In this document: positions 27,781-35,677 of the stretch, piece by piece
How the letters are laid out: every line of letters begins with the position of its first letter
Numbering within the stretch: position 1 is the stretch's first letter
From: an uncultured delta proteobacterium
GTDB lineage: Bacteria > Desulfobacterota > Desulfomonilia > UBA1062
NCBI GenBank assembly: GCA_963752595.1
Contig: CAVVYZ010000002.1
Coordinates: 192,001 to 256,000, forward strand
Direction: 5' to 3'
Length of the DNA: 64,000 nt
Translations under genes and position numbers: made by a program
The notes under the pieces: model-generated
Databases searched by the model: none
Told to the model about the DNA's origin: nothing
The model's input: the letters and a program-made list of their open reading frames with translations, nothing else

Positions 27781-28141
27781 TCATAAATGGTCCAGAGGGC
27801 TTGTGAGTTTCGCAAGGTCTTTCTGCATCACATGGGTATAAATTTCATATACAAGGCTTCTTTCGAAATCGAGGTCCTGGACCTGGAGGCGGATACACTC
27901 CATGAGTCTGAGCCCGCATCCATAGAACATTAAGGTGACTTAAAAAGGCATCGATATGTATTTTCCCCATATTCAAAGGGTGGGTTTTACTCCCATGAAA
28001 TTTGATGTACCGAAGGACCCACTCGCAGTAAGTCTGTTCGGTGCGATAGGCATAATGATGGTAACGCAGCACCTGGCGCACCTGATCCATCAATTTCAAT
28101 TTAGGATCGGGGATAAACTTCTTAATGCCATTATTTTCCAT
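27781..28141 (-). pseudogene. intI: Integron integrase with two large internal deletions
   Basis: N-term KLMDQVRQVLRYHHYAYRTEQTY..HP..MG, then (frame change) YGCGLRLMECIRLQVQDLDF joined directly to EIYTHVMQKD..SPLDHL*; divergent from the attC array. Confidence 0.85.
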
Positions 28142-28298: not shown

Positions 28299-30458
28299 AT
28301 GAGCTGGATATGAAGATTTCTCCATCGAAAGAAACGGGATGTACCCAAAGAAGACGGTGAATTGAAGCCGATTGCGGTCCCGGTTCGCAAAAGCAACGTA
28401 AGCATAGCTGCAGATAATCCAATCCAAAATCCTGAAGAAGATGCTCTAGGTCGAACCAGATCTGCCCAATCTTTCGCAAAGCAGGTCTTGTCGCTTGATT
28501 CAACAGAAGGTTTTGTCGTCGGCGTGTTGGGACCATGGGGTTCAGGAAAAACATCTTTTATCAACCTTGCTAGCGGGTACTTAAAGGACTACGGCGTCAC
28601 GCTACTAGATTTCAACCCTTGGATGTTCAGCGGAGCGGAGCAACTTATCGAAGCATTCTTCGTGGAACTCTCCGCGCAACTGAAGGTAAACCAAGATTTC
28701 GCGAAATTGGTAAGCTCCTAGAGGAATATGGCGAGAGTTTCTCTGGCTTGGGGTGGTTGCCTCTTGTCGGACCATGGGTTGAACGTGGCCAAGCCGCTAC
28801 AAAGGTTCTTGCTAAACTCCTTCAGCGTAAAAGGAAGGAATACGTGCTCGTCGGTCAAAAATTCACAAAGCTCTTGCATCCTTTGATAAGCCCATCGTTG
28901 TAATTCTTGATGATATTGATCGTTTAACATCTGTAGAAATCAGAGATGTCTTTAAACTCGTTCGGCTAACAGCAAACTTCCCTAACGTCATTTACCTTTT
29001 GGCTTTCGATCGGATTCGCGTCGAAGAGGCACTTAGGGAGCAAGGATTTCCGGGTCGTGACTCCTAGAGAAAATTCTGCAGATTGGGGTTGATCTTCCGG
29101 CAGTGTCTGCAGATGTATTGAACTCTCAAATCTTCAAGTCGATAGATGCTTCACTTGCTACCATTGAGAATCCAGGGCAGTTTGACCAGAATATTTGGCC
29201 TGATGTATTTATGGAGGTTATTCGGCCACTAATTCGGAACATACGAGATGTACGTCGTTATGTGGCCGCCATCCACGGCACCGTTCGGGATTTGGGTGGA
29301 CAAGTGGCTCTTGTGGATGTGCTAGCACTCGAAGCTATCCGTGTCTTCCTACCTGACGTCTTCAGTAGTATCTATAGAGCAGTGGATGGCCTTACTAGAA
29401 CCTCGGAAGGCTATGGAGGGTCATGACGACCCTCAGCATCTCAAACAACAGATTGACGGATTGATTAATGTGGCTGGCGAGCGTGGGGAGATTGTTCACT
29501 CGCTTATTCAGAGACTGTTTCCGGAGTTCAACGGCACATCGGCGGATCTCACTACAGTGGTGATTTGAAGAACCGTTGGCTTAGGGAGCGACGTATAGCC
29601 CATGAAGAAGTGCTTCGTCTTTATTTGGAGCGCGTTGTTGGAGAACGTCTCCAGGCCTTTATGGACGCAGAGAAGGCTTGGGAAAAGATGACAGATCGCG
29701 ATGCCCTTGAAAGTTATCTACGCTCGCTGGAACCTGAACGCCTGCAGGATGTTATTTCGTCACTCGAAACTTACGAGGATCAGTTCGGGCCTGAGCATGT
29801 GGTTCCAGCAACTGTAGTCCTGCTAAATATGTTGCCTGTTCTACCAGAACGACAGCTCGGATTTCTCGACTTAGATACCAGACTTGTCGTCGGAAGGGTG
29901 GTCTACAGGCTCATCCGCGCGATCAAGGACCCTCAAGCAGTAGAGTCTGCGGTGCGAGAGATCCTACCTCAAGTTCAGTCGCTATCCTCACAACTAGAAC
30001 TAATCACTGACGTTGGTTACCGAGAAGGGGCGGGTCACAAACTCGTGTCGGAATCCGCGGCAAGGACGTTAGAGAAGGAATGGCGAGCTAGAGTTCGTGC
30101 AGCCAGTGAAGACACGCTTGCGGGTGAAAAGGAACTCCTGAGAACCTTGATCGTCACCAAGAAAGAGGCTGAACCTGACGAACCTGATCTTGCGGTTCCC
30201 GAATCTCCCCGCGTGACATACGCACTACTGCGGTCAGCGAGGAGCGAAGTGCGGAGTCAGCCAATGGGAAGTCGGGCTGTACGCCGGTCTCCTCGACTAG
30301 CGTGGAATGTGCTAGTTGAGCTATATGGTGACGAAGCGCTCTTACGTCAGTGTATCGAGAAATTGAAGTCTTCACAGCCCGACGAAGCGTGTGATTTATT
30401 ACAGCTTGTCGAGAAGTACCTTAGCGGCTGGCGTCCCAGTGACTTCGGTGATGAATGA
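28299..30458 (+). CDS. KAP-family P-loop NTPase, first integron cassette (frameshifts and an early stop: error or pseudogene)
   Basis: GPWGSGKTS, FNPWMFS, ILDDIDRL, FPNVIYLLAFD, EKILQ; followed by attC R''. Confidence 0.8.
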
Positions 30459-30499
30459 TATGTGTCAGAGTTACCTAACACTTATAAGGCCTCCTCTTG

Positions 30500-31054
30500 T
30501 CAATAGATAAAACTTCCCCGAGACGAAAACGTTTTTCATTTTTCGTCTGCATGTGTGTCTATTGGCAAGACACTTCTGAACGGTGAGAGTTTCTTTTTTC
30601 CGTTCAACCATATCGCTCTTTGTCGGCTGCTCTGGCTTTGGTTTCATCAAGGGGTGCCAGGGAAATCAAATCCTGCACCAAACACTTATTGAGGTTCTTT
30701 TCATCATTCTTGCAAGCGGGTGGTTGCTCCCTCTACGAGAAGAATGCGACCTAGAAACAATGCTGTTCTCCCTCGTGCCGTCCCAGTCAAAAGCCGGGGT
30801 GTTGTTCTCCCCAGTTAGGCTGCGGGCTCGGGTAAGGGGCAGAACCTGACCAACAAGAGCTTGTATTGTTATGAAGGAGCGAGACGGATCTCCAATCAAA
30901 AGCAGTTGGCTGCCGGGTATCAATCGGGCACATCCTTTTTCCAGCACTCTTATGGTGCAAGGATATTCTATTCCTTTCCTGATCAAGGCGAATGCGTGCT
31001 CCATTCCCATATGGCTCCAGTTAGGCGTCGGACTGATCCGTCTCCTCCAATCTT
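30500..31054 (-). ncRNA. Predicted bridge RNA/seekRNA region of the IS1111-type element (ends approximate)
   Basis: About 570 bp non-coding region downstream of tnp; stem GAGACGGATC/GATCCGTCTC; two GCCTAACTGG...CTTTTGAYTGG modules matching the attC target. Confidence 0.65.
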
Positions 31055-32098
31055 TCAGTGGCTCAGGAATTTGTCCTGATCGAAAGCCACCTTGTTTTTC
31101 AGCATGTAATAGGCAGCTCTTCCGAGCTTGTGGGCCAGGATCGAGAGCGCTTTTCCTTTTCCGTGTTTCTGGGCAAGCCGGTCGAGGTATTTCTTCGCGG
31201 GCTCATTGCCCTTGATGAAGAGCACCGATGCTTCACTGAAAGCCCACTTCAGGTGAGCATTGCCGATCTTCTTGCCGCCGGTTCCATAGCTTTTGCCATT
31301 GGATTCTTTTTTGCATTTCACCAGACGGGCATATGAGGCAAAGTCCTGGACGGTTTCGAATCGATCGATGGTCTCTATTTCATAGAGCATGACTAGGGCG
31401 AGGATTCTGCCCACTCCCGGAATGGTTTGCAGGAGAGTGATAGGAAAGGGCGTCGTGTCCATTGGCGGTCTTGATGATCTCCCGCTCAAGCGGGATGAGG
31501 ATGCGGTCATAGGCTTCGATCATGGCGAGATCGACTTCCATGTTCTTCCTCACACTGGGATCGTCGAATCGCTCTGCAACGCCGCTTCTGTTCTGTGGCT
31601 TGGCGATGCGGCCGAGAGGATCCGGCAGGTTGTACTGGCTGTTGGTGTTCTGGATATGGGCAAAGAGCTCTGCCCTCTTCCTCACCAGATGATTCCGCCG
31701 CCTGAGAAGATCCCTGGTGGCGCGCATCTTTGCCGGGTAGACATATGCCTGGGGCAGCATGCCGCCCCTGAGCAGCACGGCGATCTTATGGGAGTCGATC
31801 TTGTCGTTCTTGCTCTTGCCGCCATGGATCGCTTTCATATAGAGCGCATGCCCCAGGACAAAGGGAATTCCCTCCTGCGCGCACAGGTCGGCCACCCAGT
31901 ACCAGGTGAACATGCACTCCGCAGCCACCACGATGTCCTCCCGAAAGGGAGCGATGAGCTCGAGAAAAGCTCGGGATCCGTATTCAGGTTCCGGTGAGCC
32001 ATGATCTCTCCATTGCTGCTGAGGACGCACACATACATTTTCTTTGTGTGCAGATCGATTCCGCAGTAATATTTGTGCTGTTTGGTGTAGAATCTCAT
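31055..32098 (-). CDS. IS110 family transposase/recombinase (two frameshifts)
   Basis: YCGIDLH, AAECMFTW, KNDKIDS, LQTIPGVG, KESNGK, GNAHLKWAF. Confidence 0.92.
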
Positions 32099-32875
32099 TT
32101 GGCCTCCTCCTTTGGTTGGTTTTTTGTTGTTGGCGCTTCAAATATACCACCCATTCGAGGAGGCCTTACATAGTATCAATGGCATGCAGCGGACGCGCTG
32201 CCGCGCGCCGCTGATGCCTAGCGTGTGTGCCGGGCATGGCACAGAGCTAGCGAGGTGAAAGTCCTCGCGCCAGGTATAAACGGAGCCGAAGGCTAGGAGA
32301 AGGGCAAGGGCGTCATCGCGAGGTGGGGTCTGGAGGAAGTCCAATCCAAAAGCTGCGGGGCGACGAACAGGAACCGGATATGAGGTGTGACGTACCCGGG
32401 ACGAGTCGGCACGTGACGACGAAGTCCTCCATCCGTGAGTTGTGTACGTTTTATAAATCCGGCGCTTATGCGCGAGAAAGCTCTGTGTCTTACCCCGGGA
32501 GATCTGTATGGTGTCCTTCACAGGTATGGCTGAAATATTGTGGCACCGCCTTAGAAACCAGGCGGCAAACAGAGAAAACAGATCTCAGCCTGAAGCCGGA
32601 AGGACTAGAGTTCTTGAGAGGGAGCTCTGACCGCCATGCAGAAGTCAGCAGAGGGCATAGTAGGTGGAAGTATCACTGAAGGCCCGAACGGTTGAGAGGG
32701 ATAGTGATCTGATAGGGGAGCGCTCATTAAGCCGGCACATAGTGTGGCCGCTTGCTAGAGATGGCAAGCAATTGAGAACTGGTCATGTCAGATGAAACGC
32801 CCGGCTGCCTCGTTGTAGGCAGAGTAATCAGCCGAACCGCCGTGTACGTGACCCGTACGCACGGTGGTGTGGGAG

Positions 32876-34821
32876 TTGCGCCTTGAAGCGCATGGAATAC
32901 AGTGACCTGGGATGGCCACCCTGGTAAAGCCTAGCCAGCAGCCAGGTACCGAGTCTTGCGTGGGGTGCGGTAACAATCTTCACGAAGCGTAGACAGGAAG
33001 GTGGCAGGCCGGAACCGAAAGATGAAGAGGAAAATTAGCCCCGAAATCGAACGTGTGCGGAGCAGTCGACCCTGTCTCTCAATGGGGAAGACGGAAATGT
33101 CATATTCGTTAGAAGGGCGAGAATATGAGATTGCTTCCGGGGTTCGTACCTACGGCATGTCATCAAGGGATTCCATGTGAACAAGGGAGATCCGGCGAGC
33201 TCAGGCGGAGCCTGTAGGAGCAAACAAGCCATCAAAGCGAGGATGCTCCGATGGTTCGTCGGAAGTCGGACTGGCTGATAGTACTTTGAGGCAGGGAGAG
33301 CCTACCACATGGGGAAGCGGCTAGCAGGATTTGAGCTCTTCTAAGGGAACATGAGCTCCATACAAAGGGAGGATACGAGCCTTCATGCAAAGGAGGGAGT
33401 AACTCAGTCATGGGAACGGGATTAGAAGGGATAGCAACGAAAGCTCGGAGTGAAACAAAGCTCAAGTTCACGTCACTATGCCATCATGTGACGCGGGAAC
33501 TGATCTGGGAGGGCCTGTGCAACATACCTTACCAGTCAGCGCCGGGAGCGGATGGCATCAGCGTGGAAGAGGCGAAGAGGACATTCAATGAATGGATAGA
33601 TGAGATGCACACGTCCATTCACCGGAAAGCATACCATGCACCACCAGTAAGGCGAGTATGGATACCTAAGCCGGGGAAAGCTGCCAAGCGACCGATAGGA
33701 GTCCCTTGCATAGCCGACAGAGCACTTCAGAGGAGTGTATCAGTGATTCTGTCGAGCATTTATGAGCAGGACTTTCTGCCGTGTTCGTTTGGAGGCCGAC
33801 CGAAGCTGAGCGCCCATCATGCCCTAGCAACATTCAACGAGATTGTAGTGGGCAAGAAGGTGGAATGGGTATTTGAAGCGGATCTAAAGAACTTCTTCGG
33901 CAGTTTGGACCATGGATGGATAGAACGCTTTGTGGAGCACCGAGTCGGAGACCCGAGGATAATGAGCTTGGTTAAGCGATGGCTAAAGGCAGGTGTTCTG
34001 GAAAATGGAGAGGTTAAACCGGTAGATGTGGGGACTCCTCAAGGGGGATCCATCAGTGTGCTGTTAAGTAATCTATATCTCCACTACGCTTTGGATCTAT
34101 GGTTCGAAAGGATTATAAAGCCAAATTTAAAAGGAGAAGCTTACTTGATAAGGTACATAGACGACTTTGTGGTATGCTTCCAATATCGCTCGGATGCAAT
34201 CTTCTTTCAGGATGCGCTGGTAAAGAGACTTGAGAAATTCAGCTTGGAACTAGAGCCTGAAAAGACCCGTTTGGTGGAATTTGGGCGCTTTGCTTCGGAG
34301 AATTCAGAAAAGCGTGGAAAGAGACTGGAGACGGTTTTCTTTCTAGGATTTACCCACTACTGCTCTCGCAACAAGAAGGGCAATTTCATGGTGGGGCGCA
34401 AGACTGAGAAGGCTCGATTCCGACGGAGCATATGCAAATTGCAAACACTGATGCAGGAGATCAGGCATCATTCCCTGAGAGGATCAAGTCCTGAAAATCA
34501 ACCAAGTACTTACGAGGCCACTATGCTTACTATGGTAGTAGGAGGGAACTTTAAATCGTTGTACATGATTTATCATTACGCCGAAAGATACTGGCATAAG
34601 ATGCTTAGTAGTCGGAGCCAAAAGAGCTACATTGCCTGGGAAAGATTCAAATTCCTCAAGCAGGTGTTTCCGTTACAGCGGCCAAAGCTTTCCGTCACTT
34701 ATAGGAGGATGAAAGCGTTCGCTGTGCTGTGAATCAAATTCTGAAGAGCGTAGTGCGGGAAATCTGCACGCTACGTTCTGTGGGGGTTGGGGCTGCCAAT
34801 TGGCAGCTCCTTCTACCCGGC
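32876..34821 (+). mobile_element. RT-encoding group II intron (inner intron of twintron)
   Basis: Starts TTGCG; DV GAAGAGCGTAGTGCGGGAAATCTGCACGCTACGTTCTG; ends CTACCCGGC; removing it rejoins outer DV and DVI. Confidence 0.85.
33410..34732 (+). CDS. ltrA: Group II intron reverse transcriptase/maturase (no endonuclease domain)
   Basis: APGADG, RVWIPK, RPIGVP, ADLKNFF, GTPQGG, RYIDDF, FLGFT. Confidence 0.93.
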   Translation: MGTGLEGIATKARSETKLKFTSLCHHVTRELIWEGLCNIPYQSAPGADGISVEEAKRTFNEWIDEMHTSIHRKAYHAPPVRRVWIPKPGKAAKRPIGVPCIADRALQRSVSVILSSIYEQDFLPCSFGGRPKLSAHHALATFNEIVVGKKVEWVFEADLKNFFGSLDHGWIERFVEHRVGDPRIMSLVKRWLKAGVLENGEVKPVDVGTPQGGSISVLLSNLYLHYALDLWFERIIKPNLKGEAYLIRYIDDFVVCFQYRSDAIFFQDALVKRLEKFSLELEPEKTRLVEFGRFASENSEKRGKRLETVFFLGFTHYCSRNKKGNFMVGRKTEKARFRRSICKLQTLMQEIRHHSLRGSSPENQPSTYEATMLTMVVGGNFKSLYMIYHYAERYWHKMLSSRSQKSYIAWERFKFLKQVFPLQRPKLSVTYRRMKAFAVL

Positions 34822-34877
34822 GAGGGGTGTCGTGAGGCGCCCCCCTATCCCGATTATGCATAGGAACTGGTTCAAAT

Positions 34878-35620: not shown

Positions 35621-35677
35621 ATCCAACCAGCCACTCCAGCCGACGGCCTATAGCCGCGGCTGACCGGCACGTTGAGG
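35621..35677 (+). other. attC site 2
   Basis: ATCCAAC...TCCAGCCG..CGGCTGA...GTTGAGG; 57 bp imperfect palindrome with R''/R' boxes. Confidence 0.8.

Follow-up and report, generated by a model that had tools for sequence, protein, structure and literature searches.

A group IIC intron without a protein gene lies in the top-strand core of an integron attC site

The invaded attC site and its introns

The window (the whole 64,000-nucleotide stretch that was analysed) includes an integron cassette array. A 5′ fragment of an integron integrase gene, intI, lies at 27845–28141 on the minus strand (NF011946, E = 6e-14; TIGR02249, E = 3e-12) and scores far under the model cut-offs because only a fragment is present. 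Since this gene runs divergently from the array, the plus strand is the cassette (top) strand. The first cassette (28362–30458) resembles a KAP-type NTPase, with a weak QatA match, and is spread over several frames. Just past the stop codon of this upstream cassette ORF (30458) comes the R″ box of the invaded attC, ACCTAAC (30473–30479, plus strand). It is parted from the rest of the site by an IS110-family element on the minus strand (30480–32177, boundaries approximate), which sits between R″ and L″ and matches NF033542 in two pieces. This IS110-family element has three further copies at 88 per cent identity. Two of these occupy the equivalent point of an attC site, and other IS copies in the genome likewise begin there after an AAC. 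At another locus (L148) the same IS end adjoins the same intron lineage as is found here, so individual attC sites gather several parasites. The broken cassette frames, the split IS transposase and the RT of the inner intron (below) suggest decay or indel errors in the assembly.

The L″–L′ hairpin and the first two R′ bases follow at 32178–32224 on the plus strand. Without the IS and the introns, the invaded site folds as a normal 59-bp attC; the DNA fold of the joined top strand has an energy of −20.5 kcal/mol, and its stem closes 6 nt upstream of the insertion point. The IntI crossover in an attC falls at G|TT. An outer intron splits R′ between GT and T on the cassette strand (CGT|T), one base past this crossover, and the rest of R′ (TATGC, 34855–34859, plus strand) resumes after it, its first base being IBS3. 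The original prediction of a top-strand insertion at this point is upheld by the orientation of the intI fragment, the R″ box and the joined 59-bp site. It had also named the next attC as a further target: that site (35621–35677, plus strand) is real and empty, with a perfect ACGT|T target in CACGT|TG (35668–35674).

The outer intron starts at 32225 (GTGTG), directly after its IBS1, GCGT (32221–32224). Its 5′ part (32225–32875, plus strand) holds DI, a long DII, DIII, a mini-DIV, DV and the start of DVI; its 3′ part (34822–34854, plus strand) holds the remaining DVI, with a bulged A at 34847 and an AT end. The break in DVI, between 32875 and 32876, was placed by comparison with uninterrupted relatives. 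Joined, the two parts (651 and 33 nt) give 684 nt followed by TATGC, the reconstituted length that had been predicted. The range first given for the element, 32221–32875, did capture an intron; its start wrongly took in IBS1, and it stopped short of the 3′ end, leaving out the inner intron and the IS as well.

The assignment to group IIC, also part of the prediction, agrees with what was found: a GUGYG 5′ end, an AY 3′ end, six domains, a DV (32836–32870, plus strand) with a CGC triad (32838–32840) and an AC bulge, and a 4-nt EBS1–IBS1 pairing with a stem-loop upstream, EBS3 being placed by analogy alone. EBS1, ACGU (32411–32414), is offered by an Id3-type loop on the predicted hairpin at 32405–32420 and pairs with IBS1 through one G–U wobble; it matches NCGT. 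The Rfam group II D1–D4 models RF02001 and RF01998 match at 32312–32488 and 32605–32684, and the intron fold has a z score of −4.85. DV and DVI are intact, and DV is identical to that of an RT-bearing relative at 48 of 48 positions. Domain IV (32689–32834, plus strand) measures 143–144 nt, close to the roughly 140 nt expected, with a fold z score of −3.25; it belongs to a structured family common to protein-less relatives, and tblastn found no RT match, and hence no class C RT in DIV, in the joined outer element. The outer copy is thus a top-strand group IIC intron without a protein gene, set in the R′ core of an integron attC. Domain II bears an extra arm of about 80 nt (32515–32627), present in some relatives with or without an RT and lacking in others; we discarded the long DII as a sign of ORF loss, since the RT-bearing L052 and L154 have one too. 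A promoter and terminator scan gave chance-level results only. DNA contigs from four sequencing runs covered just pieces of the region, none bridging the junctions under a 31-base rule, and carry no weight.

The insert in DVI is a second group II intron of 1,946 nt (32876–34821, plus strand; Rfam RF02005 and RF00029), positioned at the DV/DVI junction of the outer intron. It carries an RT ORF (33410–34732, plus strand; TIGR04416, E = 6e-81). The RT match breaks off at residue 356, pointing to a frameshift or to an error in the assembly. This intron is not IIC: it has an AGC triad and a 6-nt EBS1, CUCUCA (33076–33081), that pairs with the conserved TGRGAG at the DV/DVI junction. In four of four homologues with a reported 5′ end (L177, L181, L178 and L179), that end lies at the DV/DVI junction of an unrelated intron; a fifth match, L182, gave no 5′ end. 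A relative is also inserted at this very base in another protein-less element (L313/L239). Judging from these junctions, the inner intron appears to be specialised on the DV/DVI junctions of other group II introns. The arrangement is like that of the bacterial twintrons described in the available part of PMC4424553, where one group II intron sits within another and the inner must splice first; unlike those, the inner intron here appears to be specialised on DV/DVI junctions. With the inner intron in its DVI, the outer copy could splice only after the inner one leaves.

The top-strand attC lineage

We scanned genome contigs with a pattern from the first 35 intron bases, which is blind to EBS1 and to the flank. 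At least 119 stretches matched (about 220 estimated), and 114 among the matches listed have a readable start. CGT precedes the intron in 110 of these 114, so the homologues occupy the same attC position, as predicted. A simple attC score (at least six of seven L-box pairs, with 150 bases of flank needed) called the flank attC-like in 76 of the 103 loci with enough flank among the matches listed. As controls, 25 of 1,500 CGT sites drawn at random from this genome reached that score, as did 103 of 1,783 CGT sites within the flanks. Of the 60 alignable copies among the matches listed, 57 have ACGT as their EBS1. Neighbouring terminator-type IIC introns have EBS1 AAAA after TTTT, and AUGU or AUGA after TCAT; EBS1/IBS1 covariation is visible only against these neighbours, EBS1 being nearly invariant within the lineage. 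The hosts, among the matches listed, are Gammaproteobacteria, deltaproteobacterial groups, Acidobacteriota, Nitrospirota, Planctomycetota and NC10. Among the matches listed there are 35 complete top-strand elements, of which eighteen have a near-full RT, seven have RT remnants and ten have none. The lineage as a whole had been taken to be non-autonomous, and the eighteen RT-bearing elements contradict this.

This genome (G000) holds a second copy on contig C16 (14330–14031, minus strand), 95 per cent identical over 290 nt and at the same position of another attC. It is a 3′-truncated remnant that breaks off just into domain III, where it is cut by the 5′ remnant of another element starting GTGCG, which had no other match in the genome or the fetched loci. 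Both copies lie on the G-rich strand of their contigs, a placement that, with n = 2, fits insertion into the lagging-strand template. On contig C17 (about 30265, minus strand), the 5′ stub of an ordinary IIC intron lies directly after a terminator hairpin.

Members with an RT are found in class 1 integrons on pR148 and pPp47, where they run in the direction of the cassettes. In a ribozyme-core tree with three outgroups, a 100/100 branch joins the outer intron to the pR148 intron and sets terminator-type IIC introns apart. The pR148 intron has the same GCGT|T site and the same EBS1 loop as the outer intron, and 236 of 290 DI bases are identical. It lies at an aadA1/qacEdelta1 junction. An element at that junction was reportedly described by Rodriguez-Martinez, Nordmann and Poirel in 2012 and is said to have been shown to be mobile. 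Going by these reported details, the pR148 intron is presumably the same Enterobacter cloacae element. The features of this type, namely the GT|T of R′, co-orientation and EBS1 ACGU, all recur in the window.

Top-strand attC targeting is already published, so the original prediction erred in treating it as undescribed. The available text of PMC7923331 (citing Rodriguez-Martinez et al. 2012, J Bacteriol 194:150) mentions an unusual IIC intron in E. cloacae in an attC top strand, in cassette orientation, and that of PMC9229058 mentions a group IIC intron in Shewanella algae KC-Na-R1 in the same orientation as the cassettes. Unlike these, the outer intron lacks an ORF, its DII is long and its mini-DIV is conserved across a family; it also lies in an environmental chromosomal array and is interrupted by a second intron. 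With the IIC-attC introns S.ma.I2 and Kl.pn.I3, as described in the available parts of PMC3001079 and PMC7923331, it shares the IIC ribozyme, the attC hairpin target, a 4-nt EBS1 and T as IBS3. Those introns, however, run antisense to the cassettes and enter R″ on the bottom strand, at TTGT|T; the outer intron does not.

A tree of RTs (28 rows, made without the two broken RT frames of L035 and L065 and also without L327) separates the two kinds. Four antisense integron introns, all on plasmids and classed by gene orientation in the annotation rather than by located 5′ ends, form their own clade (100/100). This clade groups with terminator-type and other IIC RTs, and a 99/97 branch excludes all seventeen top-strand RTs; the sister RTs therefore fall outside the clade of the S.ma.I2 lineage. 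The root of the tree is unreliable, with one distant outgroup, and a joint clade of top- and bottom-strand RTs was rejected narrowly (p-AU 0.042). Because the RT tree parts top- from bottom-strand introns, we regard the former as a separate lineage and not, as had been proposed, a retargeted IIC-attC intron. What is new relative to the literature we found is the breadth of the lineage, together with a conserved protein-less subfamily.

Protein-less elements and their domain IV

The domain IV of the window intron resembles that of ORF-less copies in two other genomes, G160 and G335. We scanned metagenomes with a pattern at the DIV/DV junction (the 3′ end of DIV), which selects this DIV type by design, and obtained 98 loci, three of them with RT sequence. 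DIV length in the 58 metagenome loci with a DIII anchor was 133–149 nt in fifty-five, 170 nt in two and 1,420 nt in one. Metagenome and genome copies together give 29 distinct protein-less insertion sites, twenty-six of them after CGT; twenty-two of twenty-six scored as attC-like. The DVI branch motif is present in 25 of the 29, and a T stands directly 3′ of the intron in all 26 protein-less relatives with a readable 3′ end. EBS1 is ACGT in nineteen of the 29 copies, unreadable in four and different in the other six, and several copies have deletions in DI. The non-ACGT EBS1 sequences and the DI deletions indicate that many protein-less copies are decaying. Seven loci (L216, L246, L275, L220, L226, L231 and L253) have an extra insertion or replacement within DV with a shared starting sequence. 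We set aside a second protein-less type (L003, L061, L158), which is a plain deletion that retains the RT leader.

The mean column identity of 25 non-redundant DIVs is 63 per cent. Their common fold has compensatory changes in 23 of 35 pairs (counts that ignore relatedness), and 92.6 per cent of cells pair, compared with 80.0 per cent when shuffled and 29–40 per cent when slid. The window DIV matches a leave-one-out profile from the 24 other protein-less elements with E = 2.4e-10. A covariance model places the central arm of DIV, with weak scores, on the hairpin that covers the RT start codon in the RT-bearing sisters L154, L046 and L052 and in the part-deleted L189 (E from 5e-5 to 4e-3 overall, 32 sources). 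When a profile of sequence alone was used, 26 RT-type domains IV showed no DIV homology. The structure of the E. rectale-type IIC intron includes a maturase-binding D4a arm. In the IIC structure presented in the available part of PMC10190682, D4a is the high-affinity maturase arm; by analogy, the mini-DIV likely keeps an RT-binding role.

The protein-less elements do not form one clade on the DI plus DV core tree (p-AU 2e-7, with L242 left outside the tested group), and a single origin of the protein-less forms is therefore rejected on the ribozyme core; recombination or repeated origin is needed. Compared with RT-type relatives in its family, the window copy has a DI identity of 94–95 per cent; with other mini-DIV copies the figure does not exceed 87 per cent. 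No other DIV is more than 65 per cent identical to its own. Across 22 protein-less copies, identities in DI and DIV are weakly correlated (r = 0.36, Mantel p = 0.015). These comparisons suggest that the window copy is a mosaic, with a catalytic core closer to its RT-bearing kin than to protein-less copies. The simplest reading is that DIV or the core was exchanged by recombination at conserved anchors.

The original prediction held that the intron must borrow an RT, and neither tblastn with a sister RT nor the TIGR04416 model found a cognate RT in this genome, an 84 per cent complete draft. The RTs that were found, that of the inner intron and a CRISPR-linked one, are 34–36 per cent identical to the sister RT. 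The latter (G000:C7:55001–55810, minus strand) is a stand-alone RT followed by a cas1-like gene and, read by eye, is probably CRISPR-associated. Given that neighbour and, for the RT of the inner intron, an identity of only about 34 per cent, neither is likely to act as helper. In G160 (98 per cent complete) and G405 (95 per cent), draft genomes that also host protein-less copies, the search gave no group II RT. Repeats are often missing from draft assemblies. By comparison, G335 combines an RT-bearing sister with no fewer than four protein-less DIVs in one genome. In G160, two 613-nt protein-less copies, 99.7 per cent identical, occupy different attC sites. When full-length protein-less copies were compared, this was the single near-identical pair split between two sites; in the remaining eight, both copies share one site. 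No recent second-site copy of the window intron was found.

ORF-less group II introns have been described in bacteria; they encode no IEP and are proposed to use related IEPs in trans (Simon et al. 2008, via the available part of PMC4424553). According to the same source, they are rare, usually found beside a related RT-bearing intron, and not long-lived. The protein-less elements here differ in having many divergent copies, a fixed-length structured DIV and some hosts in which no RT was found. We found no paper on an ORF-less intron family in attC cores in the open-access literature, the scope of our search.

Explanations and meaning

We consider it reasonably probable that the outer intron is a protein-less member of a widespread IIC lineage that inserts at CGT|T of R′, and that it moves by means of an RT from full-length relatives, with the conserved mini-DIV as the predicted binding arm for that RT. 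According to the available part of PMC10190682, the target of a IIC RNP is made up of a DNA stem, a short spacer, a 4-nt IBS1 and IBS3, and the D4a arm is where the RT binds. Applied to the integron, transcription of the array would supply the intron precursor RNA, and this RNA, helped by the borrowed RT of a full-length sister, would take as its target a folded attC top strand, whose L-box hairpin would serve as the stem. After the L-box stem and a short spacer, EBS1 would read CGT and EBS3 the following T, and reverse splicing would then take place, perhaps into single-stranded top strand at a replication fork. Such an insertion would turn GTT into GTG, block IntI at that site and fuse two cassettes. 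The core of the window copy also appears to have been swapped against that of local RT-bearing copies, through recombination at conserved anchors in DIII and DV. The copy in the window is itself probably dormant, since no matching RT was found in the assembly and the inner intron must splice first.

The mosaic pattern also allows an explanation with no RNA homing at all, in which DIV spreads by DNA recombination through DIII/DV crossovers that replace the ORFs of RT-bearing introns already in attC sites, and the cassettes move by IntI and horizontal transfer. The window DI lies close to RT-type kin (94–95 per cent, against at most 87 per cent for other mini-DIV copies) and its DIV is no more than 65 per cent identical to any other, monophyly of the protein-less forms is rejected, and several hosts have no RT that we could find. 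Recombination alone, however, leaves the compensatory upkeep of the DIV fold unexplained; the weak correlation between DI and DIV fits some inheritance as a unit, and the G160 copies are near-identical from end to end. We think this explanation unlikely.

Still less likely is that the window holds an ordinary dead copy, produced by a one-off deletion of the RT from a known intron and later struck by the IS and the nested intron. Internal RT deletions are common in the lineage (seven of the 35 complete elements among the matches listed have RT remnants), the site has been struck three times, and the second genomic copy is a 3′-truncated remnant. Yet DIV contains no RT remnant and matches the protein-less profile at E = 2.4e-10, and DV and DVI are intact. 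It is very improbable that the intron is a splice-only element tolerated by its host, leaving array transcripts while locking cassettes in place. Co-orientation with the array, intact catalytic domains, the destruction of the GTT triad and the hosts in which no RT was found would all suit such an element, but at an intergenic site splicing is not needed for coding, the 29 insertion sites point to mobility, and many copies have decayed.

Beyond movement of the outer intron with a borrowed RT, we tentatively put forward a wider reading, to which we give somewhat less than an even chance: that protein-less IIC introns make up a long-lived, MITE-like family living as a parasite on the integron arrays of many bacteria, with a portable, conserved, RT-recruiting mini-DIV that is swapped onto local cores for compatibility with the local RT, and that its insertions silence attC sites while staying removable from transcripts. 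In most sedentary arrays (25 of 30 in the available part of PMC5371416), the bottom strand of attC is on the leading-strand template; the top strand would thereby be exposed at the fork, which may explain why the lineage is common in environmental arrays. Protein-less introns are invisible to gene-based annotation, and because they break attC sites they obscure where cassettes begin and end and may fix the order of the array. With its conserved 145-nt DIV, a protein-less subfamily spread this widely would be a natural minimal RT-binding module, and it would be a clear case of non-autonomous retroelements in bacteria.
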